Assembly: GCA_018715725.1 (NCBI GenBank)
Contig: DVLD01000012.1
Location: 113 to 64,112, forward strand
Direction: 5' to 3'
Origin: Candidatus Aveggerthella excrementigallinarum
Lineage (GTDB): Bacteria > Actinomycetota > Coriobacteriia > Coriobacteriales > Eggerthellaceae
Length of the DNA: 64,000 nt
Below are positions 1,993-24,308 of this stretch, piece by piece (positions within the stretch are counted from its first letter, which is position 1; each line of letters starts with the position of its first letter). Position numbers and translations under genes: made by a program. The notes beneath the pieces were generated by a model that had not been told where the DNA came from, did not search any database, and was given only the letters and a program-made list of their open reading frames with translations.

Positions 1993-3617
1993 CGCGCGCC
2001 CTCCTGCGCCCACAGCCGCGTGAAGCCGTCGGGCTCGGGGCGGAAGAACAGGTTGCCCTCGAAGAACGCCGCCGCCGGCTCGGTGCACGCGTCCTCACCG
2101 TCGAAGAGCATGGTCACCTCGTCGGCAACGAAGGAGACGAAGCTCAGATCGTGCGAGACCATGACGATGGTCGCCCCCCGCTCCCGCTCCGCGCGCAGCG
2201 AACGGGCGACCGCGAGCTTCGACGCGGCGTCAAGGCCTTTCGCCGGCTCGTCGAGCAACAGCAGGCGCGGGCGTGTGAGCAGCACCTTCGCCTCGGCGAG
2301 CAGCTGTTGCTGGCCGCCGCTCAGATCGGACGGATGGCGCTCAAGCAGGCTCTCAAGCCCGAACCGGGCCGCCATGGCGCGCGCCTCGTCCTCGCCGTAG
2401 CGCGCGGGGCCCGCCCATTCCATGAGCTCTTCGCGCACCGTGTCGCACGCGAAGAGCGCGCGGGGGTCCTGCGGCACGAGCGCCTGAGCGTCGCGCAGGG
2501 CGTTGCGCACGCGACCGCGCTCGGGCTTGAGCACGCCGGCCGCCACGCGCAGGGCCGTGGACTTGCCGCAGCCGTTGCCGCCCACGATGGCGTGCACCGT
2601 GCCGGGCGCCGCGCGCAGGCACATACCCGCCAGCACCCACGGCAGGTCGCGCTCGTAGCGGAACGAGACCTCGCGCAACTCAAGAGCGGGGCTCGACGAG
2701 CGCACCACAGCGGCAGGCGCGCGCGGAGAAGAGGCCAGCACGTGCGCAACAGCCTCCTCGCCACCGCGCGCAGGCGTCGCCGTCGTGCCCGTCGCGTCTT
2801 CCGCCGCGAGGGTTTCGCCCCTACACGCCATATCGCCCCCTCCCGACGCAGACTGCGGCAGGAACTCTTCGAGGCGGGCGGGCGCGATGCGGCCTTCCTC
2901 CAGGCGAACCGCCGCGGTGGCGTACGCCGCCGCCGACTCGGGGGCGTGCGTGGCCATCACGACCGTGATGCCGCATTCGCGGTTCACGCGGAAGAGCGCA
3001 TGCAGGAAGTTTTTCGCCGCCACCGGGTCGAGCTGTCCCGTCGGCTCGTCGAGCAAGAGGACGCGCGGTCGCAGCGCCAGGGCGGAGGCAAGGTTCAACA
3101 GCTGCTTCTGCCCGCCGGAGAGATTCGCCGTCTCCCGCCCGAACCATGGCTCGATGCCGAAGAAGTGCGCCACCTCCGCCACGCGCCGACGCATGAGCGC
3201 CGGCGGCGTGCCCGCGTTCTCGAGCCCGAAGGCGAGCTCGTGCCACACCGTGTCGCACACGATCTGCGTCTCGGGGTTCTGCGCCACGTAGCCGATCAGC
3301 TGCGAGGCGGGCGCTTCGCGAGCGGCATCGGCGGCAGGGGCGGCTGCGGCGTCTTCGACGTCTTCGGCGTCTTCGGAGGCGTCGTTGGCGCCTTCGCCGT
3401 ATAGCGAACGGCCGAACGCGCGAACCTCGCCCGACCGCTCCCCCGCCACCGCAAGCTCGGGCTTGGCGCAGCGCAACAACGTCGTCTTGCCCGAGCCGGT
3501 GGCGCCTACCAGGATGACGAACGCGCCTGCCGGAACGCGCCAGTCGACGGCGCGCAGCACCGGCGCGTCGGCCCCTGGATACGCGTACGAGAAGCCTTGA
3601 AAGCTCAGCGCGTCCAT
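1989..3617 (-). CDS. ECF/ABC ATPase with two fused nucleotide-binding domains
   Basis: Walker A GATGSGKT and GGNGCGKS, signatures LSGGQKQ and LSGGQQQ, Walker B LLLDEP twice; start MDALSF at 3617. Confidence 0.9.
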   Translation of the reverse strand: MDALSFQGFSYAYPGADAPVLRAVDWRVPAGAFVILVGATGSGKTTLLRCAKPELAVAGERSGEVRAFGRSLYGEGANDASEDAEDVEDAAAAPAADAAREAPASQLIGYVAQNPETQIVCDTVWHELAFGLENAGTPPALMRRRVAEVAHFFGIEPWFGRETANLSGGQKQLLNLASALALRPRVLLLDEPTGQLDPVAAKNFLHALFRVNRECGITVVMATHAPESAAAYATAAVRLEEGRIAPARLEEFLPQSASGGGDMACRGETLAAEDATGTTATPARGGEEAVAHVLASSPRAPAAVVRSSSPALELREVSFRYERDLPWVLAGMCLRAAPGTVHAIVGGNGCGKSTALRVAAGVLKPERGRVRNALRDAQALVPQDPRALFACDTVREELMEWAGPARYGEDEARAMAARFGLESLLERHPSDLSGGQQQLLAEAKVLLTRPRLLLLDEPAKGLDAASKLAVARSLRAERERGATIVMVSHDLSFVSFVADEVTMLFDGEDACTEPAAAFFEGNLFFRPEPDGFTRLWAQEGAR

Positions 3618-4456
3618 CGCAGCGCCTCCTCTCCCCGCGCAATGAACGGGAACAGCAGAAATGCCGCATACACGGCGTAGCCCCACCACCAGTGCAGCGG
3701 GTCCATGGTGGGATAGAACCGATACGTGGAAGCAGCGGCCCACGCGACAGCGAACGCCGCGACGGCGAGCGCCGCAAGCAGCGCCGCGAGCGCAGCGTCG
3801 TGCGAGGTGAAGCGCCCGCGACGGTAGCGCGTGCGCCTCCGTCCGCTCTGCCACCCGCGCGCACGCATGGCGTCGGCCGTCTCGAGCGAATCCTCCATGC
3901 TCCATTCCATCAGCACGGACGTCTGGCGCACGCGCGCCGCGAAATCCCGCGCGCCCGCGCGCGCGACCGTGCACGCGTCGTGCGCAGCAGCGATCTCGCG
4001 CCCGCGGTCGACGAAGTGCGGCACCAAGCGCAGCGCCATGGACACCATGAGCGAGACCGTGGGCAAGCGGTTGCCCAGGACGGCCATGACCTTGTCGGAC
4101 GTGAGCACGCGCGCGGCGTTCGAGAACCACGCGATGACCGCGGCGAGCATGAGGCCCATGACCGCGCCGTAGCAGAGGCTTTCCAGGTAGACCGCGCGCA
4201 GGCCGATGCGGAAGAGCTCGGTGGACCCCGACGCGGAGAACAGCGGGTTCGCCACCGCGACGAGCAGGACGAGCGGAATCTGCCAGCACAGGGAGCGAAG
4301 CGTTCGGAGCCAGCCGCGCAGCAGCACGCCGCACGACAGCGCCGCAGCCAGCGAGATGACCGTGAGCACCGGCTGCACGGCCGCCATGGTGAGCGCGAGC
4401 GCCGCCGCGAAGAACGCGGCGGGCACGGCTGGATGGCACGAGTCGAGCGCCGTTAC
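3605..4456 (-). CDS. ECF transporter T component (CbiQ/EcfT); start uncertain
   Basis: HPAV N-terminus, ANPLFS, MALRLVP and MRARG motifs. Family-like sequence begins at a GTA codon (4456); the next in-frame ATG is 4387. Confidence 0.8.
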   Translation of the reverse strand, partial: VTALDSCHPAVPAAFFAAALALTMAAVQPVLTVISLAAALSCGVLLRGWLRTLRSLCWQIPLVLLVAVANPLFSASGSTELFRIGLRAVYLESLCYGAVMGLMLAAVIAWFSNAARVLTSDKVMAVLGNRLPTVSLMVSMALRLVPHFVDRGREIAAAHDACTVARAGARDFAARVRQTSVLMEWSMEDSLETADAMRARGWQSGRRRTRYRRGRFTSHDAALAALLAALAVAAFAVAWAAASTYRFYPTMDPLHWWWGYAVYAAFLLFPFIARGEEALRWTR

Positions 4457-16835: not shown

Positions 16836-16875
16836 GAAAAAGGGCCATGGCTGGACATTGGTCCGCCATGGCCCT
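16836..16875 (-). terminator. Intrinsic terminator of rpsB-tsf
   Basis: Stem AGGGCCATGGC/GCCATGGCCCT followed by a T-run on the minus strand. Confidence 0.75.
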
Positions 16876-16951
16876 CTTGAATGGCTCGATGGGGCATCAG
16901 AACGCCCCGCAGCGTCAAGCCGTTTCGCCGGCCGGAAGCCGGCGAAGCAAA

Positions 16952-17812
16952 CTACTCGCCCATCACGAAGCGAGCGAAGCCCTCCACCTTGATGGTGCCG
17001 CCAAGCTCCTTGGCAACGCCGTCAACGTACTCGGAGATGGTCTGATCCGGGTTCTTGACGAACTCCTGCTCGGTCAGGACGCTCTCCTTGAAGAACTTCT
17101 CCAAACGACCGGTGGCGATCTTCTCCTGGATGGCCTCCGGCTTGCCGGACTCGGCGGCCTGAGCCTTGTAGATGCTCATCTCATGCTCGATGACGGCCGG
17201 GTCGACGGACTCGCGGTTCGCGGCCACCGGAGCGGCAGCGGCAACCTGCATGGCGACGTCATGGCCGCAGGTCTTGAACGCCTCGGCGGTCGGGTCGATG
17301 CCCTCAAGGCCGAACTGCACCAGAACGCCGATCTTGCCGCCGCCATGGATGTAGGAAGCGATGGCGTCGGCCTCGACGACCTGGAAGCGAGCGAGTTCGG
17401 TGTTCTCGCCCATCACGTGGATGGCGTCGGTCACGATGGCCTCGACGGTCTCGCCGTCAATCTCGGAAGCCTTGAGAGCGTCCAGGTCGGCCGGCTTGTT
17501 GGCCAGCGCGGCGCGGGCGATCTTCTCGGCATAGCCCTTGAACTTCTCGTTCATGGAGACGAAGTCAGTCTCGCAGTTCAGCTCGACGAGGGCGCCGGTC
17601 TTGCCGTCCTCGGAAACGAGCGCCATGACGGTGCCTTCGTTGGTGGCACGGCCGGCCTTCTTGGCAACGGCGGCCAGACCGCGGGTGCGCAGGACGTCGA
17701 CGGCCTTGTCCAGGTCGCCTTCGGCCTCGACGAGGGCCTTCTTGCACTCCATCATGCCAGCGCCGGTCATTTCGCGGAGTTCCTTGACGAGAGCTGCGGT
17801 GATTTCAGCCAT
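16952..17812 (-). CDS. tsf: Elongation factor Ts
   Basis: ITAALVKELREMTGAGMMECKKAL, ELNCETDFV and VAMQVAA motifs. Confidence 0.98.
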   Translation of the reverse strand: MAEITAALVKELREMTGAGMMECKKALVEAEGDLDKAVDVLRTRGLAAVAKKAGRATNEGTVMALVSEDGKTGALVELNCETDFVSMNEKFKGYAEKIARAALANKPADLDALKASEIDGETVEAIVTDAIHVMGENTELARFQVVEADAIASYIHGGGKIGVLVQFGLEGIDPTAEAFKTCGHDVAMQVAAAAPVAANRESVDPAVIEHEMSIYKAQAAESGKPEAIQEKIATGRLEKFFKESVLTEQEFVKNPDQTISEYVDGVAKELGGTIKVEGFARFVMGE

Positions 17813-17893
17813 GTTCTTCCTTTCTGGAGAAGGGCGGCAGGCCCTTTTGCCCGTCGCCCTTTTTGCTGATCGGTATGACGTGTGCGCGATGCG

Positions 17894-18661
17894 CTACTCG
17901 GCGGCCGGAGCCTCGGCAGCCGGGGCCTCCTCAGCGGCCGGAGCCTCAGCCTCGGCGGCCATCTCCTCAGCGGAGACCGGGGCGACGCCGCCGGCCAGAA
18001 CCGCGTCGGCCATGAAGTCGGACAGCAGGCGGACCGAGCGGATGGCGTCGTCGTTGGCCGGGATGCCGTAATCGACGTCGTCCGGATCGCAGTTGGTATC
18101 GAGCGTGCCGACGATGGTGATGCCCAGGCGGCGGGCCTCATGGACGGCAATCTGCTCGCGGTTGGTGTCGATGATGAAGATGGCGTCCGGAACCTTCTTC
18201 ATGTTGCGGATGCCGTTGAGGTTGGTCTGCAGCTTGGACAGCTCCTTGCGCAGCAGAATCTGCTCCTTCTTCGGCAGCTTCTCCATGCGACCGTCGGTCT
18301 CCATGGCCTCGAGCTCCTCCATGCGCTGCACGCGGGAGCGGATGGTCACGAAGTTGGTCAGCATGCCGCCGAGCCAGCGGGCGTTGACGTAGGGCATGCC
18401 GCAGCGGTTCGCAGCCTCGGCAACGGGCTCCTGAGCCTGCTTCTTCGTGCCGACGAACAGCAGGGTGCCGCCCTTCTTGGCCAGGTCGCAGGCGTAGGTG
18501 TAAGCCTGGTCGAGGCCGACGAGGGTCTGCTTGAGGTCGAGGATGTAGATGTCACCGCGGTTGCCGAAGATGTACGGACGCATCTTCGGGTTCCAACGGC
18601 GCGTCTGGTGGCCGAAGTGAGCGCCTGCGTCAAGCAGGGTCTGCAGATTGATTTTTGCCAT
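17894..18661 (-). CDS. rpsB: 30S ribosomal protein S2
   Basis: [30 protein letters not shown] and PANDDAIRS motifs. Confidence 0.98.
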
Positions 18662-18955
18662 TTCTTTCTCCGTTCGTTAATCCTCTGCGAAGCTTCATCC
18701 CCCGGCCCGCAGCCCCGCGGGGCCACTGGCAGACCGAAGTCCCCTCCGCATGCGTAATCAGAAACTGCAAAAGAATAACACCCTGGGCGCAAGCGCGCAA
18801 GGATGATGGACACGCAAGGCTCATGACGCATAAGCCCAAACACACTTCGCGGCACATAAGGCCGACATCCCCTCGTTCATCCCTGTCGCTCATCCGGCGG
18901 CGCTCAGTCGCCCTTTCGAAGGTGCCGACCATCCTTCGGCCGCATCCACGTCGCT

Positions 18956-19060
18956 TTCCTGCGGCATCCAGCCGCTCATCCGACACGTCGCCTTCCCGCA
19001 GCATCCAGCCACTCGTCCGACACATTGCCTTCCTGCAGCATCCAGCTGCTCGTCCGACAC
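18956..19060. repeat. About three tandem 37-bp repeats (TTCCYGCRGCATCCAGCYRCTCRTCCGACAC...)
   Basis: Units start at 18956, 18993 and 19030; contiguous, with no spacers. Confidence 0.85.
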
Positions 19061-19267
19061 ACGTAGACGGAAATAATTGGCGTTTCTGCACCCGTTTTCG
19101 AAGTTTTTGACCAAAATATCCGTTCACCGTTGGGAGAGCGTAAACCCGTCTGGCCATGGGTTGACTAGACGCGACAAGTGCATGCCCCTGAACTGGTGTT
19201 TTGCAATTGTTCCTTGCAGTCAGTCGCCCCTATTCGTCACCCAACGACTACCGCAGCCGCCTCCGGA

Positions 19268-19322
19268 CGACACTCGCCGGAAATTATTGCCGCCATCGCG
19301 ACACTAGCCGGAAATTCTTGCC
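19268..19322. repeat. 24-bp direct repeat CGACACTMGCCGGAAATTMTTGCC, 31-bp period
   Basis: Copies at 19268-19291 and 19299-19322 differ at 2 positions; a degenerate third copy lies at about 19055-19081. Confidence 0.85.
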
Positions 19323-19551
19323 AAAAACCGCGATTTCGCTTGCGCGGCCCGCAAAGAAGAGCTTGGGCTCGCATATTCAGACGGCGCGGGCAGAGAAGGG
19401 CATGTCGCAGCGTCAGCTTGCGCTCGTGACGGGCACCAGCCGCTCGTACCTGTGGCGCATTGAGTCGGGCACGGCGGACGTGGGCATCGACGTGCTGTGC
19501 CGTATCTCCCGCGCGCTCGACGTCGAGGTAGCCGACCTCATCGATTTCTAG
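19318..19551 (+). CDS. XRE/Cro-type HTH protein (start uncertain)
   Basis: LGSHIQTARAEKGMSQRQLA...SRSYLWRIESG...RISRALDV is a typical HTH_3 pattern; in-frame TTG at 19318 used, no clear RBS. Confidence 0.75.
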   Translation: MPKTAISLARPAKKSLGSHIQTARAEKGMSQRQLALVTGTSRSYLWRIESGTADVGIDVLCRISRALDVEVADLIDF

Positions 19552-19617
19552 CAGGCACGCGCGTCGTCACGCATGTCGTCACGCGCCTCACCATACCGCT
19601 CCGACCAGCGGGATTCC

Positions 19618-19632
19618 TCAGTTGCCAACTGA
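19618..19632. promoter_or_regulatory. Palindromic operator candidate TCAGTTG-C-CAACTGA, copy 1
   Basis: Perfect 7-1-7 inverted repeat, 24 nt before the TAGCAT hexamer of an extended -10 upstream of the 19692 gene. Confidence 0.7.
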
Positions 19633-19691
19633 ATAGCCCGGCGATGCGGCGTGTGCTAGCATGCGGTGCGACCGACCACGAAGGAGCGCGC

Positions 19692-20126
19692 ATGCCTGCC
19701 GAAAAGCTCACCGAAGACCTGCTCGAACGCTTGCTCGCCGCCACGAGCCCCGAAGCGTACCTGGCCGAGGGCGAGACGCTCGACCGCGAGCTGAAGGACT
19801 ACCTGCATGAGCTGATCGACGAGCGCGGCATGACGCGTGCCGACGTCTACCGCGCCGCGAAGCTCAACCCCACCGTCGTCTACGACATCTTCGCCGGCAA
19901 AAGCAGGCCCGGACGCGACAACGCGCTCATGCTCGCTTTCGGCATGCGATGCGACCTCAAGGAAACGCAACGCCTCCTGCGCCTCGCGGGCGTCTCGGAG
20001 CTGTGGCCGAAAGTGCGCCGTGACGCCATCGTCATCTGGTGCGTTGAGCACGGCATGACGCTCAACGAATGCGACGAGGAGCTGTGGCGCCTGGGCGAAA
20101 AGACCCTCTTCGACTCTGAGCGATAG
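19692..20126 (+). CDS. XRE-like HTH transcriptional regulator (144 aa)
   Basis: AAGGAG RBS; central HTH (RGMTRADVYRAAKLNPTVVYDIFAGKSRPGRD); 4 bp from the kinase gene. Confidence 0.8.
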   Translation: MPAEKLTEDLLERLLAATSPEAYLAEGETLDRELKDYLHELIDERGMTRADVYRAAKLNPTVVYDIFAGKSRPGRDNALMLAFGMRCDLKETQRLLRLAGVSELWPKVRRDAIVIWCVEHGMTLNECDEELWRLGEKTLFDSER

Positions 20127-20130
20127 CGCC

Positions 20131-21882
20131 GTGACCACCCCGCAGCCAAACAGCCAGGACGAACGTCGCGTGGCGCACGCCATGAGCATCGACGACGCGT
20201 ATCGCGTTGAACGCGTGCTCGCACGGAACGCGCAGGGGATCACCGAGCTTGTCACCATCGACGGGGCAGGCCCTTTCGTTCGCAAGAAAATCCCGTGCGC
20301 CCTCGCCCACCGCACCGTGTGGGCGGCGTTGGCAACCTGCTCGAACCCCGGCCTTCCGCGCGTCCAAGCGACGTACGAGACGCCTGATTGGTTCGCCGTG
20401 GTGCTCGAGTTCGTCCCTGGCGAAACGCTTGAGCACATCGTCGAAGCGACCGGCGCCATGCCCGCGAACGAGGCGGCTCGGCGCGCGCTCGGCATCTGCT
20501 CCGCCGTTGAGGAGCTGCACACCCACGGCATCATCCACCGCGACCTCTCGCCGACGAACGTGGTGGCAAACGGCGACGGCGTTCACCTCATCGACCTGGG
20601 CACTGCGCACATGACAACCGAGCCCGCCTCCCCCAGCGAGCCGCCGTTTGGCACGTGGGGCTTCGCCGCGCCCGAACAGCACGGATTCGCCGAGGCGGAC
20701 GAGCGTTCAGACGTCTATGCGATCGGACGGCTGCTCGGCTACCTGCTCACCGGAGCTCGGCCCGACGACCAGCAGTTCGAGCAAATCCTGAACGACGAAA
20801 GCGTCGTCCCTCCGCGCCTGCGCACCGTCATCGAGCGCGCCTGCGCCTTCGAGCCGAGCGCCCGCTACCAAAGCGCCCGCGAGCTGGCGGCGGCGATTGG
20901 CGGGAAAGAGCGCGCAAGTGCGCCGGTCGTTCACACGGCCATGCCAGCACCTGCGGCTGCCGCGCAGCCTGCCCCCGCCAGCGCAAGCGCCGTCCCCACG
21001 CACGCTACCAGCAAAAACGCGTCCGCACGAAATCATCGCCCGCCCATCGTGTTCGGCGCCGCGGTGGTCGCGGCCATCGCCGTGATTGGCGCCGTTTGCT
21101 GGGCAGGGCTCAACGGCATGCACGAAGGCCCCGCGCAAAACCGTGCGAGCGTCTCCGAGGGCGGCATCGAGTGCACCGCCGAACAGCAACCCGAACGCGG
21201 CGACAAACAGCAGCCTGAGCGCAACGACGAAAGCGCAAGCGAACAGTCCGACGCCGCGCCCTCTCACGATGCGGCCTCAGCCACCGCTGCATCCACCGCC
21301 TCAGACGCCTCGCTTGAGCTCGTCGAATCTGGGTGGTCGCCCATCGAGCACGGGCTCGTCAGCTACGCGTTCGGCATCCGCAACACAAGCGAGACCGAGA
21401 CCATCGACTACCCCGAAGTCGTGATCACCGGACGGGCGGCGGACGGCGCGGTCGTGTTTTCGCAACCTCAAGCCCTCATGTCCATCGCTCCGGGCGAAAC
21501 GCTGTACTTCGGCGGTCCGGCAGGATCAGGCACCGCTCCCGCAACCGTCGAATTCTCGGTCAGCGCGCCAAGCGCGCGCGACGCCTCGAGCGCGCACGAG
21601 AAGCGCGCGACGCTTTCCACGTCGCCCACCGTCAGCGCGCAGGAAGGCTCGTTCGGCACCGTCGTGTTCTCAGGGGGCGTGACCATGTCCGAAGGCGCCG
21701 TGCCCGACCTGACGAGCAGCGTCATGGTGACCATCGTGCTGCGCGACGAGACGGGCGCCATCGTCTACGGCGCCACCACGAACACGAGCATCCCCAGCCC
21801 AGGACAGAACGCCCCTTTCGCCTGCGAGGTGTATAACCCGCCCGCATACCTGACCATCGAAGCGCACGCCCAGTTTTGGTAG
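20131..21882 (+). CDS. Membrane-spanning Hanks-type Ser/Thr protein kinase
   Basis: HRDLSPTN, LIDLG, GTWGFAAPEQ and DVYAIG motifs; one TM (IVFGAAVVAAIAVIGAVCWAGL); beta-rich extracellular region. Confidence 0.9.
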   Translation: MTTPQPNSQDERRVAHAMSIDDAYRVERVLARNAQGITELVTIDGAGPFVRKKIPCALAHRTVWAALATCSNPGLPRVQATYETPDWFAVVLEFVPGETLEHIVEATGAMPANEAARRALGICSAVEELHTHGIIHRDLSPTNVVANGDGVHLIDLGTAHMTTEPASPSEPPFGTWGFAAPEQHGFAEADERSDVYAIGRLLGYLLTGARPDDQQFEQILNDESVVPPRLRTVIERACAFEPSARYQSARELAAAIGGKERASAPVVHTAMPAPAAAAQPAPASASAVPTHATSKNASARNHRPPIVFGAAVVAAIAVIGAVCWAGLNGMHEGPAQNRASVSEGGIECTAEQQPERGDKQQPERNDESASEQSDAAPSHDAASATAASTASDASLELVESGWSPIEHGLVSYAFGIRNTSETETIDYPEVVITGRAADGAVVFSQPQALMSIAPGETLYFGGPAGSGTAPATVEFSVSAPSARDASSAHEKRATLSTSPTVSAQEGSFGTVVFSGGVTMSEGAVPDLTSSVMVTIVLRDETGAIVYGATTNTSIPSPGQNAPFACEVYNPPAYLTIEAHAQFW

Positions 21883-21899
21883 GTTCCGGCGCAAAGGAT

Positions 21900-21914
21900 T
21901 CAGTTGGCAACTGA
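21900..21914. promoter_or_regulatory. Palindromic operator candidate TCAGTTG-G-CAACTGA, copy 2
   Basis: Same 7-1-7 inverted repeat as 19618-19632, 22 nt before a CACAAT -10-like hexamer upstream of the lipoprotein gene. Confidence 0.7.
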
Positions 21915-22008
21915 TGCGCGCCCCTGCTCGATTCGGCACAATCGCCAGAACGCCTTCATGCCCGCACGACGTCGCTCGTGCCACCAAAACGAGAGGGGAC
22001 GAAACACC

Positions 22009-22878
22009 ATGAATCGCATCGCCATTATCGTCATCGCGCTCGCGCTGGCTTCCTGCCTTGCCGCCTGCACGACGAGCGTGCCGACCGACCAAACCACCAC
22101 ATCAAACACCGACAGCCAGGGCAGCCCCTCCACATCCCCCGAACGCGCCGTGAGCGCCGAGGACATCGCGTGGACCGTGGAACCGGGCTCGATCGAAGGG
22201 AACGACATGATCGTGCTCAACTACACGAACAATTCCTCGGTCGACGTGTTCGGTGTCCGGCTCGAGTTCAGGCAGGCGGACGGGGTGACCGACGAGCAGC
22301 GCGCCGTCTTCGACGAGCTCTACGAATCGAACAGCATGTGGGAGGACATGAACGGAGGCAAGGACGAAGTGTACGTGGGCGCGTCGAGCGAGCGCTACCT
22401 GCAGCCCGGCGAGAGCAACACGACGCCCTGCACGTTCAATTTCACCGCGACCCCCGTGTCGAGCATGGAGCAATACGAGCTCATGGAGCCTAAAACCCTG
22501 AGCATCGCCTACAAAAACGGCGACCGCGTCTATCTCGAATATTACGACTTCGCCACCGACAGCTACTCGTCTTCGAGCCAGGGCGACAAACAGGCCGTCA
22601 CCTGGTCGAACTCCGAGATCGCGCAGCTGATTCCCCGCATCGAAGCGCCCGTTGTCGGCGTTTCGAGCGACTCGAGCGACTACTTCTCGGCAAGCGCGTA
22701 CGGCGTGACGCGCGGACAGTACGAGTCGTACGTCGCCGAGCTGGAGAACCGAGGGTTCACCGCGGACGCAAGCAAGAGCACGAACTACTTCATGGCGTCG
22801 AACGCCGACGGATACGACGTGACCGCCAGCTTCAACGGCCCCGACGAGTCTATGAGCGTCAACATCAACACGTACTAG
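22009..22878 (+). CDS. Lipoprotein of unknown function (289 aa)
   Basis: GAGGGG RBS; signal peptide with lipobox LAAC; T/S-rich linker; acidic globular region. Confidence 0.85.
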   Translation: MNRIAIIVIALALASCLAACTTSVPTDQTTTSNTDSQGSPSTSPERAVSAEDIAWTVEPGSIEGNDMIVLNYTNNSSVDVFGVRLEFRQADGVTDEQRAVFDELYESNSMWEDMNGGKDEVYVGASSERYLQPGESNTTPCTFNFTATPVSSMEQYELMEPKTLSIAYKNGDRVYLEYYDFATDSYSSSSQGDKQAVTWSNSEIAQLIPRIEAPVVGVSSDSSDYFSASAYGVTRGQYESYVAELENRGFTADASKSTNYFMASNADGYDVTASFNGPDESMSVNINTY

Positions 22879-22956
22879 GCAGCCTGCGGCGCAAGGCAGA
22901 AACTCCACGCCTCACGGCTCGCGCCGCACGCCTCGCGCCGCACCCCCTCCAACACC

Positions 22957-22996
22957 ACGAAAGCCGCCGCGCCCATCAGGACGCGGCGGCTTTCGT
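22957..22996. terminator. Hairpin terminator between the convergent lipoprotein and tig genes
   Basis: ACGAAAGCCGCCGC/GCGGCGGCTTTCGT inverted repeat. Confidence 0.8.
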
Positions 22997-23024
22997 TCGC
23001 ACGGAGCTTCGTGTTGTCCTGCGC

Positions 23025-24308
23025 TTAGTCGGTGTAGGTGATGTCGGCGTGCTCGACGACCCAGCGGGCGGCCTTGTTGCGCTCGGCCATCTCGCGCAGG
23101 GCGTAGCCGTTGCCCGTCTCCTCCATCTGCATGCGCGCCAACTGCGGACCCTGCGGGTTGATGATGCGGCAGGTCTCCATGATGTCCTCGTCGGTGAGGG
23201 TCAGCTTCTCGTGGCGGTACACCGCGTCGAGCGCGAAGCCGTTCACGAGCGCCATGCGGGTCTGCACCATGAGCATCATGCCGAACTGCTGCTGGCCGCC
23301 GTTCTGTTCGATGAACTTGTCGAGCGACATGCCCTGGGCCTGCAGCTCGGTGCTCAGCTGCTTGAGCTGCGTCTCGCGCATAGCCTCGTAGAGGGCATCG
23401 TCGATGGAGCCCTTGAAGCGCTGCGAGAGCTTCGTGAGCGCCAGGTTCTCTAGGTAGGCGTTGTACTCCTGGCGATGGGCGCTCTCGAGCTGGTACTCAA
23501 TGCTCTCGCGGAACGCCTTCGCGTCGCGGAAGAACGGCATGTTCTTGGCAACCCACTCGTCCGTGATCTCGGGCACGACCTGCTTTTGCAGCTCGAGCAC
23601 CTTCACGTGGCAGGTGACCTTGACCACGTCGTCGCCGCCCGGCGCCTGGAAGGCGAAATCCTTCTCCTGGCCCGGCTCCATGCCGACGAGCTGGTCGTCG
23701 AAGGCGCCCGGCATGTAGCCCTGGCCGACCGGGTAGGTGCGGCGCTCGGTGTTGAACGCGGCGAAGTCCTCGCCGTCCTGCTTCGTGTCGGAGATGGAGA
23801 TCTCCACGAAGTCGCCCTTCTTGACCGGACGCGGGTCGATGGCCTCGTAGCTGCAGAAGCCCTGCGCCGCGGCCTTCACTTGCTCGTCCACTTCGCGCGG
23901 GTCGATGGAGAAGCGCTTCGCCGTGAACGCGACCGGCTCGTAGGAATCAAGCTCGTACTCCGGCTTCGGCAGGATCTCCATGGTGAACGTGAACTCCTCG
24001 CCGCGCTTGAGCGTGGTCTGCGCCACCGGCTTCGGCGGGAACGCCGGCACGATGCCCTTCTTGTCGATGGCGAAGGGCACAAGGAACTCCGGCACGCGCG
24101 GCATCACGAGCGCGTCCAGGTTCGGCACGCCCAGGCGCTCTTCCGCCTGCTCGGCGAACGGCTTGCCCTGCTCGGGCTCCACGCCCATCTGCTGCAGGAA
24201 CGCCACCGACGCCCAGTCGAACGCCTTGTCCACGTCGACCGCGGATGCGGTAGCCTCCACGAGCACGCGCTTGCCCACCAGCTTCTTCTGCACAACCTTC
24301 ATGCGCAT
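23025..24308 (-). CDS. Trigger factor-like protein (divergent paralog)
   Basis: Trigger-factor length and architecture; FKBP-like domain (VKKGDFV...FDDQLVGMEPGQEKDF), VPEITDEWV; canonical GFRxGxxP loop absent. Confidence 0.8.
   Translation of the reverse strand: MRMKVVQKKLVGKRVLVEATASAVDVDKAFDWASVAFLQQMGVEPEQGKPFAEQAEERLGVPNLDALVMPRVPEFLVPFAIDKKGIVPAFPPKPVAQTTLKRGEEFTFTMEILPKPEYELDSYEPVAFTAKRFSIDPREVDEQVKAAAQGFCSYEAIDPRPVKKGDFVEISISDTKQDGEDFAAFNTERRTYPVGQGYMPGAFDDQLVGMEPGQEKDFAFQAPGGDDVVKVTCHVKVLELQKQVVPEITDEWVAKNMPFFRDAKAFRESIEYQLESAHRQEYNAYLENLALTKLSQRFKGSIDDALYEAMRETQLKQLSTELQAQGMSLDKFIEQNGGQQQFGMMLMVQTRMALVNGFALDAVYRHEKLTLTDEDIMETCRIINPQGPQLARMQMEETGNGYALREMAERNKAARWVVEHADITYTD

Follow-up and report, generated by a model that had tools for sequence, protein, structure and literature searches.

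The window analysed here, a stretch of 64,000 nucleotides from Candidatus Aveggerthella excrementigallinarum, contains a short locus between rpsB-tsf and tig in which two copies of a 15-bp palindrome accompany an HTH-kinase gene pair and a lipoprotein gene. The features of the locus are as follows:

19318 to 19551, plus strand: XRE1, a small HTH protein of the classic Cro/C1 type (Pfam HTH_3, 5.1e-13), whose TTG start lies at either 19318 or 19363
19590 to 19595, minus strand: left-facing -10-like hexamer TATGGT (plus strand ACCATA), separated by 22 nt from the GGAA-flanked side of site 1
19618 to 19632, no strand: operator site 1, TCAGTTGCCAACTGA, from the sequence and from mismatch scans of the window and the genome
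19654 to 19662, plus strand: extended -10-like element TGcTAGCAT (24 nt past site 1), from which the HTH2-kinase operon is putatively transcribed
19692 to 20126, plus strand: HTH2 (P0003), 144 amino acids, divergent XRE fold, proposed operator-binding regulator
20131 to 21882, plus strand: P0001, membrane Hanks-type Ser/Thr kinase of 583 amino acids (Pfam Pkinase)
21900 to 21914, no strand: operator site 2, TCAGTTGGCAACTGA, 17 nt past the kinase stop codon
21937 to 21942, plus strand: -10-like hexamer CACAAT, exactly 22 nt downstream of site 2; it putatively serves the lipoprotein gene as an activator-dependent promoter
22009 to 22878, plus strand: lipoprotein P0004, 289 amino acids, of which residues 195-287 make up a DUF6591 half-domain; predicted target gene of site 2
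22960 to 22993, no strand: GC-rich hairpin, read from the sequence, that separates the lipoprotein gene from tig, which converges on it

The HTH2 gene ends at 20126, 4 nt before the GTG start codon of the kinase gene at 20131. P0001 consists of a kinase domain (residues ~20-260), one hydrophobic span (~313-337) and, beyond it, some 245 C-terminal residues predicted to lie outside the cell, among which residues 390-583 form a predicted extracytoplasmic tandem beta-sandwich; the last 190 residues were modelled as two beta-sandwiches with a pLDDT of 92. An earlier reading made from the letters of the window (the sequence-only reading) had described a 4-bp gap between the XRE gene and the kinase gene, and a kinase with a single transmembrane segment and an extracellular domain, and both descriptions were borne out. 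A fold search with the outer domain returned only generic beta-sandwich matches (transglutaminase C-terminal domains and ApaG, for example) and no clue to a ligand, an Atlas search gave only unnamed kinase and lipoprotein clusters, and no similarity was found between the outer domain and the lipoprotein. The N-terminus of P0004, MNRIAIIVIALALASCLAAC, has a signal peptide and a lipobox Cys, and its match to DUF6591 (PF20234; 59.2 bits against 27.1) covers half of the profile. The hairpin following the gene is likely to mark the end of the unit; it was not called by a terminator scan that requires a T-run.

By sequence, HTH2 is a divergent member of the XRE (Cro/cI) family. It falls short of the Pfam gathering cut-offs (HTH_26, 21.1 bits against 22; HTH_3, 19.7 against 23) and its best PDB sequence match, HipB(Lp), is not significant (E 0.24). 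The AF2 model (pLDDT 88) has the five-helix Cro/cI-type HTH fold, preceded by an N-terminal helix with Thr7 and followed by a two-helix C-terminal extension; the recognition helix is PTVVYDIFAGKS, residues 60-71. In a Foldseek search the neighbours of HTH2 were the N-domain of DdrO, 434 Cro, P22 c2, C.AhdI and ClgR, with target-normalised TM-scores of 0.7-0.8 and an rmsd of 1.6-2.6 Å to 434 Cro, P22 c2, the DdrO N-domain and C.AhdI, and also HipB and HigA.

The palindrome, TCAGTTGSCAACTGA, occurs at 19618-19632 and 21900-21914, as the sequence-only reading had reported, and nowhere else in the 2.03-Mb genome. With up to two mismatches allowed, the window still holds only these two matches, against 0.10 expected, and none of 100 shuffled sequences reached two; the earlier observation that the window has no further copy therefore holds. 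With up to one mismatch, sites 1 and 2 are the sole copies in the assembly, which is 87 % complete. The genome scan that the sequence-only reading had proposed thus rejects a genome-wide repeat. A role as an RNA hairpin or terminator was also rejected, since a 7-bp stem cannot close on a loop of 1 nt, and it is further contradicted by the tie of the element to -10 hexamers at the DNA level.

Conservation of the palindrome was followed in 151 genomes of the order and 301 of the class. With up to one mismatch it was found in 20 of the 23 genomes that encode a window-type HTH2 and in 17 of the 128 that do not; co-occurrence with the XRE-kinase pair was the check that the earlier reading had proposed. 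A reversed pattern, used as the background control, matched in 12 of the 151 genomes, and the 17 genomes without HTH2 are near this background; those examined had coding matches or a prophage copy. One-mismatch matches in genus g67 lie inside the RNase H coding sequence of genomes that have no HTH2 homologue, exact copies in G093, G231, G259 and G313 belong to one shared prophage, in which they lie between the terminase and portal genes, and the exact copy in G399 is inside an ORF and has no -10 hexamer; all of these were discarded as sites of the circuit, and the exact copies in the prophage and in G399 count against it. The exact palindrome is present in 15 of the 301 genomes of the class, all of them within this order, with no control matches. 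Almost all copies lie within a few kb of an HTH-kinase pair, and the kinase gene comes directly after the HTH gene at all class-A loci and at 26 of the 27 class-B loci examined, class A being the window type. Site 1 is retained in position in G001, the closest relative (one mismatch), and in G013, and equivalents of site 2 follow the kinase gene in G273, G057, G051, G218, G129, G202, G144 and others. DUF6591 proteins are the commonest target beside class-A sites in other genomes. Judged by these comparisons, the boxes form a genuine operator that is kept at orthologous loci and tied to the HTH-kinase pair, which bears out the shared operator of the sequence-only reading. A paralogous module was found in 15 of 16 genomes sampled and is near-universal in the order.

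Comparison of the paralogues showed that the operator class follows the class of the recognition helix. Proteins with the helix VVYDIF (VVYDIF.GKS) are paired with TCAGTT-N3-AACTGA sites, and those with TFGYQIF (TFGYQIF.G.R) with TTAGCT-N3-AGCTAA sites, the exact form of which is present in 27 of the 151 genomes against one for the control. When perfect palindromes were sought in front of the class-B HTH genes, nothing shared came up, and the class-B operator surfaced only with an N3 centre. In G110, the helix SPQLYRCFEG is accompanied by TCCCYT-N3-ARGGGA at the same two positions (QLYRCF with TCCCCT-N3-AGGGGA), and G371 has a B-type helix and a B-type site and lacks the A-type site. Three genomes have a window-type HTH2 and no A-type site, two of which are accounted for by helix class; G382 carries only the variant site TCAGGCGGAGGCTGA. 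No distinct operator was found at the intermediate locus of G058. The genome studied here has a second such circuit on contig C28, where TTAGCGCGCAGCTAA occurs twice only, before an HTH-kinase operon and before a lipoprotein gene, each copy with its -10 at 22 nt.

Because the operator class tracks its recognition-helix class, the 144-amino-acid HTH2 adjoining the kinase is likely to be the operator binder. The sequence-only reading had placed an XRE protein at the boxes; this is likely for HTH2 and unlikely for the classic XRE1 at ~19318-19551. XRE1 is a textbook HTH_3 protein beside site 1, and its orthologues (at least 66 % identity) share the neighbourhood in about nine genomes. However, such orthologues occur in only some of the palindrome-bearing genomes: none was found in the 19 genomes of family f3, which has the most sites (3-5 per genome), and G144, G001 and G013 likewise gave none; all of these genomes keep their sites. 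The phyletic pattern thus disfavours XRE1 as the binder, and it is probably a neighbour. Binding by XRE1, or by an unlinked regulator, with a different role for HTH2, is improbable on this pattern and on the correspondence of operator and helix.

The position of the operators relative to the promoters is also conserved. At 32 of 41 distinct class-A sites and at 19 of 25 class-B sites, exactly 22 nt separate the palindrome from the start of the -10-like hexamer, and other offsets score 0-3. In the window the spacing is 24 nt at site 1 and 22 nt at site 2, in agreement with the 22-24 nt given in the sequence-only reading, and its placing of the boxes near the -35 position typical of activators is matched by the fixed position abutting the -35 region at those 32 class-A sites. 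A 22-nt spacing puts the centre of the site near -42, which is the class II position, like that of lambda cI at OR2. With predicted transcription start sites, the sites lie near -41.5/-42, abut or replace a poor -35 element and have the -10 in a fixed register, as in class II-type activation. No canonical sigma-70 promoter (-35/-10 pair) was found in a scan of 18600-23100. At site 1, TAGCAT lies at 19657-19662 with TG at 19654-19655, an element identical in G001, and has no -35 match; this HTH2-facing promoter, with its extended -10 at 24 rather than 22 nt, may not need an activator. The GGAA flank usual in the family is absent at site 2 and at site 1 lies on the left-facing side, away from HTH2. 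Several operator sites are bidirectional. The left-facing TATGGT at 19590-19595, whose spacing fits the family consensus, would drive transcription antisense to XRE1 and is not conserved in G001.

The kinase is, by its sequence, an atypical Hanks-type enzyme. P0001 scores 81.7 bits against the Pfam Pkinase cut-off of 31.7, its nearest solved relative is PknB (best PDB match, 3.3e-17), and it also matches the RIO1 and Bud32 models in a profile search. The beta-3 Lys (FVRKK), HRD Asp, PTN Asn, DLG Asp and AAPE are present, and this set (beta-3 Lys, HRD Asp, loop Asn, D(F/L)G Asp and APE) is conserved family-wide in the 46 members read. The GxGxxG Gly-rich loop and the catalytic-loop Lys (HRDxKxxN) are absent, the loop being HRDLSPTN in P0001 and HRD[LI][ST]PxN in the family, and no conserved Glu was seen at the expected alpha-C position in the family alignment. 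P0001 may thus be a weak kinase or a mere scaffold. RIO and Bud32 kinases function with a similar H.DLS..N loop.

As to the acceptor, the sequence-only reading had pointed to the Thr in EKLTEDLL and had looked to an alignment for its conservation. This residue, Thr7, proved invariant in 51 of 51 homologues, down to 42 % identity, in an alignment (A1) that spans both main paralogue groups, and T61 and T138 are likewise nearly invariant. In the AF2 model, Thr7 sits at a helix N-cap and is followed by acidic residues, a position for which its conservation could be structural alone; it is a first candidate phosphosite. A search for HTH-kinase fusions gave none, only three singleton long forms, probably artefactual and none of them fused to a kinase.

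Taken together, a self-contained circuit in which HTH2 activates at both operators with the kinase as its cognate input is somewhat favoured. An HTH2 dimer probably binds TCAGTT-N3-AACTGA, each operator abutting the -35 region of a promoter that has no -35 element, with its centre near -42, and would most likely recruit RNA polymerase in the manner of lambda cI at OR2 and of restriction-modification controller proteins. HTH2 would thereby activate two units, the operon that it shares with the kinase and the neighbouring gene of the DUF6591 lipoprotein. The co-transcribed bitopic kinase, with its outer domain of two beta-sandwiches, would provide the input: in response to a cue connected with the envelope, it would phosphorylate HTH2, Thr7 being the first candidate, and so switch its activity. 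We infer the dimer binding, the activation, the phosphotransfer, the acceptor residue and the signal.

The same parts could be joined differently. HTH2 might bind the palindrome as a repressor that occludes the -35 region and is relieved by kinase signalling, as in the autorepression of HipB, DdrO and ClgR-like proteins; many XRE proteins autorepress, DdrO, HipB and HigA are among the structural neighbours of HTH2, and the HTH2-facing promoter, with its extended -10 at the non-canonical 24 nt, could be constitutive and merely dampened. Repression is nevertheless unlikely in view of the absent -35 consensus and of a 22-nt spacing that recurs across three operator classes and across non-homologous promoters (the genes behind them encode kinases, DUF6591 and SPFH proteins, a small protein and a secreted protein), which together point to a stereospecific contact with RNA polymerase. 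The kinase-like protein might instead be a tether or pseudokinase that holds or frees HTH2, as an anti-sigma factor would, or simply a regulated target. The replaced Lys, the missing Gly-rich loop and the lack of a conserved alpha-C Glu would suit a tether, and the kinase gene is itself a target in families f3 and f5, where it is separated from the HTH2 gene by the operator. Against this, the remaining catalytic residues are conserved throughout the family and the matches to RIO1 and Bud32 fit kinases known to work with such a loop, which makes this reading quite unlikely.

A toxin-antitoxin module of the HipBA kind, or an anti-phage module with a defence kinase like PD-T4-6 or Stk2, is very improbable. 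The XRE gene 4 nt ahead of a kinase gene recalls the order of hipBA, and the PADLOC models for PD-T4-6 match the kinase domain at 1e-35. This match, however, reflects generic Pkinase similarity, no HipA domain was found with Pfam or NCBIfam, and P0001 is a Pkinase-family protein anchored in the membrane with a predicted outer domain; the near-universal presence of the paralogous module, the setting between rpsB-tsf and tig and the envelope proteins that are the predicted targets likewise speak against such a module.

The circuit with an activating HTH2 may extend beyond this locus. We tentatively propose, as a reading with a little less than an even chance, an order-wide family of Hanks-type pairs of one kinase and one regulator, insulated like two-component systems. 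A few residues of the recognition helix would give every paralogous pair a separate operator code; each pair would act through class II-type geometry on a handful of envelope genes (for DUF6591 lipoproteins and SPFH/SHOCT proteins), and the switch would be an invariant N-terminal Thr phosphorylated by a Lys-less kinase. Bacterial Hanks-type kinases are usually seen as pleiotropic, and their links to specific promoters are hard to establish. The comparative data supply the parts of a one-to-one circuit, namely a regulator, an operator known in three specificity variants with candidate determinant residues, a promoter geometry, a local regulon and an invariant candidate phosphosite. Signalling from kinase to promoter can be tested directly with few proteins and oligonucleotides, and the paralogous pairs offer a natural system for how such pairs remain insulated. 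To our knowledge, signalling in gut Coriobacteriia has been little studied, and literature searches found no description of this HTH-kinase module.

The concept as such is not new, PknL-Rv2175c and PknH-EmbR (and also PknK-VirS) being precedents for pairs of a Hanks-type kinase and a regulator. PknL-Rv2175c of M. tuberculosis likewise combines a transmembrane Hanks-type kinase with a small neighbouring regulator that consists of a DNA-binding domain only. In the parts of PMC4601284 consulted, Thr9 in the N-terminal extension of Rv2175c is the phosphosite, its phosphomimetic change to Asp abolishes DNA binding, and the protein is thought to govern functions related to the cell envelope. The two systems differ in that Rv2175c is a winged HTH protein and HTH2 has the XRE fold, in that the N-terminal extension of Rv2175c is, according to PMC4601284, specific to M. 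tuberculosis whereas Thr7 of HTH2 is invariant order-wide, in the Lys-less catalytic loop of the kinase here, and in the operator code and fixed promoter geometry, which are present here and not described in those passages of PMC4601284. CapK-CapS is another adjacent kinase-substrate pair in which phosphorylation of the regulator controls a neighbouring operon (EMBO J 2026, PMC13373217), but CapK is an anti-sigma-type kinase and CapS a STAS-domain repressor, and they respond to ssDNA and control immune operons (PMC13373217).

HipB-HipA shares with the present locus an XRE-family HTH gene immediately upstream of a Ser/Thr kinase gene, and palindromic promoter operators; HipA is a soluble kinase of another family and part of a toxin-antitoxin system, whereas P0001 is a membrane receptor of the Pkinase family. 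For the promoter architecture, the closest parallels are lambda cI at OR2/PRM, C.AhdI and C.Esp1396I, whose XRE-fold dimers occupy a palindrome adjoining the -35 region, with its centre at ~-42. Lambda cI and the controller proteins activate promoters with a poor -35 element, and the structural neighbours of HTH2 include C proteins and phage repressors. HTH2 differs from them in its extra N- and C-terminal helices, and the proposed circuit in that it would be governed by a partner kinase rather than by concentration. In place of the His-Asp phosphorelay and receiver domain of two-component systems, the proposed chemistry is Hanks-type Thr phosphorylation. Like those systems, the proposed pair would join one membrane sensor kinase to a cognate, autoregulating DNA-binding regulator, with a small local regulon and with paralogous pairs that have separate operators.

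The gene order of the locus, derived from a GC3-based gene call and family searches, starts with murA, tsf and rpsB on the minus strand, continues with XRE1, HTH2, a kinase gene and a lipoprotein gene, and ends with a convergent tig gene followed by an EF-G paralogue. Long plus-strand ORFs at 16847-17869 and 17882-18757 were rejected as shadows of tsf and rpsB, the true genes on the minus strand.

Features of the locus (window positions)
16952-17812, minus strand: tsf
17894-18661, minus strand: rpsB
about 19318-19551: XRE1, a small classic HTH_3 protein
19590-19595 (plus-strand numbering), minus strand: left-facing -10-like TATGGT, 22 nt from site 1 on its GGAA side
19618-19632: operator site 1, exact sequence TCAGTTGCCAACTGA
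19657-19662: -10-like TAGCAT, 24 nt after site 1, with TG two bases upstream
19692-20126: HTH2, 144 aa
20131-21882: kinase, 583 aa, starting 4 nt past the HTH2 stop
21900-21914: operator site 2, exact sequence TCAGTTGGCAACTGA
21937-21942: -10-like CACAAT, 22 nt after site 2
22009-22878: lipoprotein with a DUF6591 half-domain

The paired palindrome described by the sequence-only reading is real. Both 15-mers were found by sequence, and they were the only matches in the window at ≤2 mismatches, where chance would give 0.10; no shuffle out of 100 had as many as two. The own assembly (2.03 Mb, 200 contigs, 87 % complete) contained no other copy at ≤1 mismatch, so the claim that the window holds no third copy extends to the whole assembly, and the palindrome is not a genome-wide repeat. 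The spacing of 22-24 nt to the -10-like hexamers and the 4-bp gap between regulator and kinase were also as that reading had given them. No canonical -35/-10 promoter was present in 18600-23100.

HTH2 scores slightly under the Pfam cut-offs for both HTH_26 and HTH_3, and the only label found for its family in the sources was XRE family transcriptional regulator. Its AlphaFold model (pLDDT 88) has a five-helix Cro/cI fold at its centre, which superposes on 434 Cro, P22 c2, the DdrO N-domain, R-M controller proteins and ClgR with target-normalised TM-scores of 0.7-0.8, and an additional N-terminal helix (7-24) and two additional C-terminal helices (109-133). Homologues were found in 41 of 61 related genomes, with a kinase gene directly after the HTH2 homologue on the same strand at essentially every locus examined. 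Most fall into one of two classes. Class A, to which the HTH2 of the window belongs (55-78 % identity), is patchy, occurring in 23 of 151 genomes of the order; class B (about 45-50 % identity) is present in most genomes of the order, including the own genome, where two of the five Pkinase genes are in HTH-kinase pairs. A profile built from the two classes together hit 15 of the 16 genomes sampled from the order and 0 of 235 others of the phylum. In the class-A module of one genome (G031:C16, L035, 3828-5077), HTH2 is interrupted by an in-frame TGA, the reading frame of the kinase changes, and the palindrome close by has two mismatches; this module looks damaged, or poorly assembled.

Of 301 genomes of the class, 15 had the exact palindrome, each with one or two copies and each belonging to this order; the reversed operator motif used as a control was present in none. 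At ≤1 mismatch it was found in 20 of the 23 genomes with a class-A HTH2 versus 17 of the 128 without, the co-occurrence that the sequence-only reading would predict, in counts from mutually related genomes that are not independent events. The 17 genomes are close to background, since the reversed control matched 12 genomes of the same 151-genome sample at ≤1 mismatch. Several exceptions were examined. Five genomes of genus g67, which have no HTH2 homologue, share a match inside an RNase H coding sequence, and the copy in G399 lies within an ORF and has no -10. In G401 a contig end truncates the HTH2 gene right beside the site. One common prophage in G093, G231, G259 and G313 (L064, L058, L059 and L062) carries an exact TCAGTTGSCAACTGA between its terminase and portal genes, beside a 109-aa ORF; class-A HTH2 is absent from G093 and G259 and lies 1.17 Mb away from this copy in G231, and the prophage copy is probably due to chance. 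At module loci, the site expected from the sequence-only reading is conserved upstream of HTH2, its place in the window, in G001 and G013, and lies between HTH2 and the kinase gene in families f3 and f5; a second site is usual just past the kinase, ahead of the neighbouring gene.

The strongest evidence for HTH2 as the putative protein binding the palindrome is that operator class and recognition helix vary together.

Recognition helices and operators
Class A: helix x-T-[VF]-V-Y-D-[IV]-F-x-G-K-S (residues 60-71 of the window's HTH2); operator TCAGTT-N3-AACTGA
Class B: helix [ED]-T-[FY]-G-Y-Q-[IV]-F-x-G-x-R; operator TTAGCT-N3-AGCTAA, TGAA flank usual
Class C (genome G110): helix SPQLYRCFEGKG; operators TCCCTTGCAAGGGGA and TCCCCTCGCAGGGGA

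The exact class-B operator, TTAGCTGNCAGCTAA, occurred in 27 of 151 genomes, versus one for the control. A second, paralogous HTH-kinase circuit, with the operator TTAGCGCGCAGCTAA, was found on contig C28 (L040) of the own genome, which contains no copies of this operator beyond the two on C28. One is ahead of the HTH-kinase operon and one ahead of a small lipoprotein gene, and both have a -10 spaced by 22 nt.

Features of contig C28
813-2507, minus strand: class-B HTH-kinase operon
2580-2594 and 3253-3267: class-B operator copies
3330-3746, plus strand: small lipoprotein gene

The class-C sites in G110:C4 (L096; 5438-5452 and 7349-7363; pattern TCCCYT-N3-ARGGGA) lie in the HTH2-kinase gap and just past the kinase, each likewise with a -10 at 22 nt. 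The HTH2 of G371 is class A by overall score, yet it has a B-type helix, and its genome carries a site of type B but none of type A. G382:C29 (L095) encodes a class-A recognition helix, yet its sole site is the variant TCAGGCGGAGGCTGA after the kinase (4285-4299), whose outward side has a -10 spaced by 22 nt. The neighbouring XRE1 has orthologues in some genomes only, with 0 of 19 in the family richest in sites, f3, and none in G144, G001 and G013.

A hexamer was counted as -10-like if its second base was A, its sixth was T, and four or more of its six bases agreed with TATAAT. Such a hexamer starts exactly 22 nt past the palindrome, to one or both sides, in 32 of 41 non-redundant class-A sites, and all remaining offsets from 8 to 44 score 0-2. 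The same spacing is exact in 19 of 25 class-B sites. The promoter-side flank of most class-A sites is GGAA, and at some sites the palindrome extends over 23 bp (TTCC...GGAA) and is flanked on either side by a -10, serving divergent genes. Site 2 obeys the 22-nt rule and lacks the GGAA flank. Site 1 departs from the usual pattern: the GGAA flank points left, and the HTH2-facing side has the 24-nt spacing and an extended -10, an arrangement also seen in G001. When the hexamer is taken as -12 to -7, the operator covers -49 to -35 with its centre at -42, and AGGAAn, a poor -35, occupies the -35 hexamer position. Simple occlusion by a protein bound at the operator seems less likely, as one register is shared by unrelated genes and by the operator classes; this argues instead for activation by stereospecific contact with RNA polymerase, the way in which lambda cI at OR2 and C-proteins activate.

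Recurrent targets adjacent to the sites are DUF6591 lipoproteins or membrane proteins, and an operon whose last gene encodes an SPFH (Band_7_1) and SHOCT protein. This protein type recalls YdjI/SamI of B. subtilis, which is described in PMC8581546 as linking PspA to the membrane. Genomes of family f3 have 3-5 sites each, the extra targets being secreted proteins and a small protein. At L017 a class-B operator is common to the module and a divergent gene pair encoding a zinc-ribbon and an SPFH-like protein. A leftward transcript from site 1, on the canonical GGAA side, would enter XRE1 antisense (window 19590-19632), and XRE1 is convergent at the end of an operator-driven target operon in G214, G051, G057, G273, G129 and G202, so that XRE1 may face convergent transcription while the circuit is active.

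The kinase clearly belongs to the Pkinase family, and its nearest solved relative is PknB. As the sequence-only reading had it, it has one TM span and an outer domain, modelled confidently as two beta-sandwiches (pLDDT 92); a fold search with this domain gave no informative structural match. Its family retains the beta-3 Lys (FVRKK), the HRD Asp, the loop Asn, the D(F/L)G Asp and APE, lacks the Gly-rich loop and has the catalytic-loop Lys replaced (HRD[LI][ST]PxN). RIO and Bud32 kinases have a comparable catalytic loop, which makes catalysis plausible. The bitopic class-A kinases carry some 200-250 residues as an outer domain. Class-B kinases (for example at L012, L015, L019 and L022) have 2-3 terminal TM helices and no outer domain, and the first gene of class-B operons often encodes a DUF4190-DUF5067 membrane protein, which could be their sensing partner.

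The N-terminal Thr proposed by the sequence-only reading as a phosphorylation site, Thr7, is the sole invariant Ser/Thr across 51 aligned HTH2 proteins of the two classes (46 % mean column identity), T61 and T138 being nearly invariant. Thr7 is a candidate phosphosite for the partner kinase. In the AlphaFold model it caps the N-terminal end of the first helix, just ahead of acidic residues, and it may therefore be kept for structural reasons.

The PADLOC matches of the kinase are generic. The housekeeping gene context, the membrane topology of the kinase and the envelope targets argue against a role in defence or as a toxin-antitoxin system. A kinase-regulator circuit acting at the two boxes, as originally interpreted, is largely plausible, and the module supplies an unusually complete, testable parts list.

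No paper on the HTH2-kinase family was found in the literature. The closest precedent is PknL-Rv2175c, described in PMC4601284 as an adjacent transmembrane Hanks kinase and DNA-binding-only regulator, Rv2175c having an N-terminal phosphosite, Thr9, and a suggested link to functions of the cell envelope. PknH-EmbR, CapK-CapS (PMC13373217) and HipBA share part of the same logic, and the promoter geometry of the module is like that of lambda cI and C-proteins.
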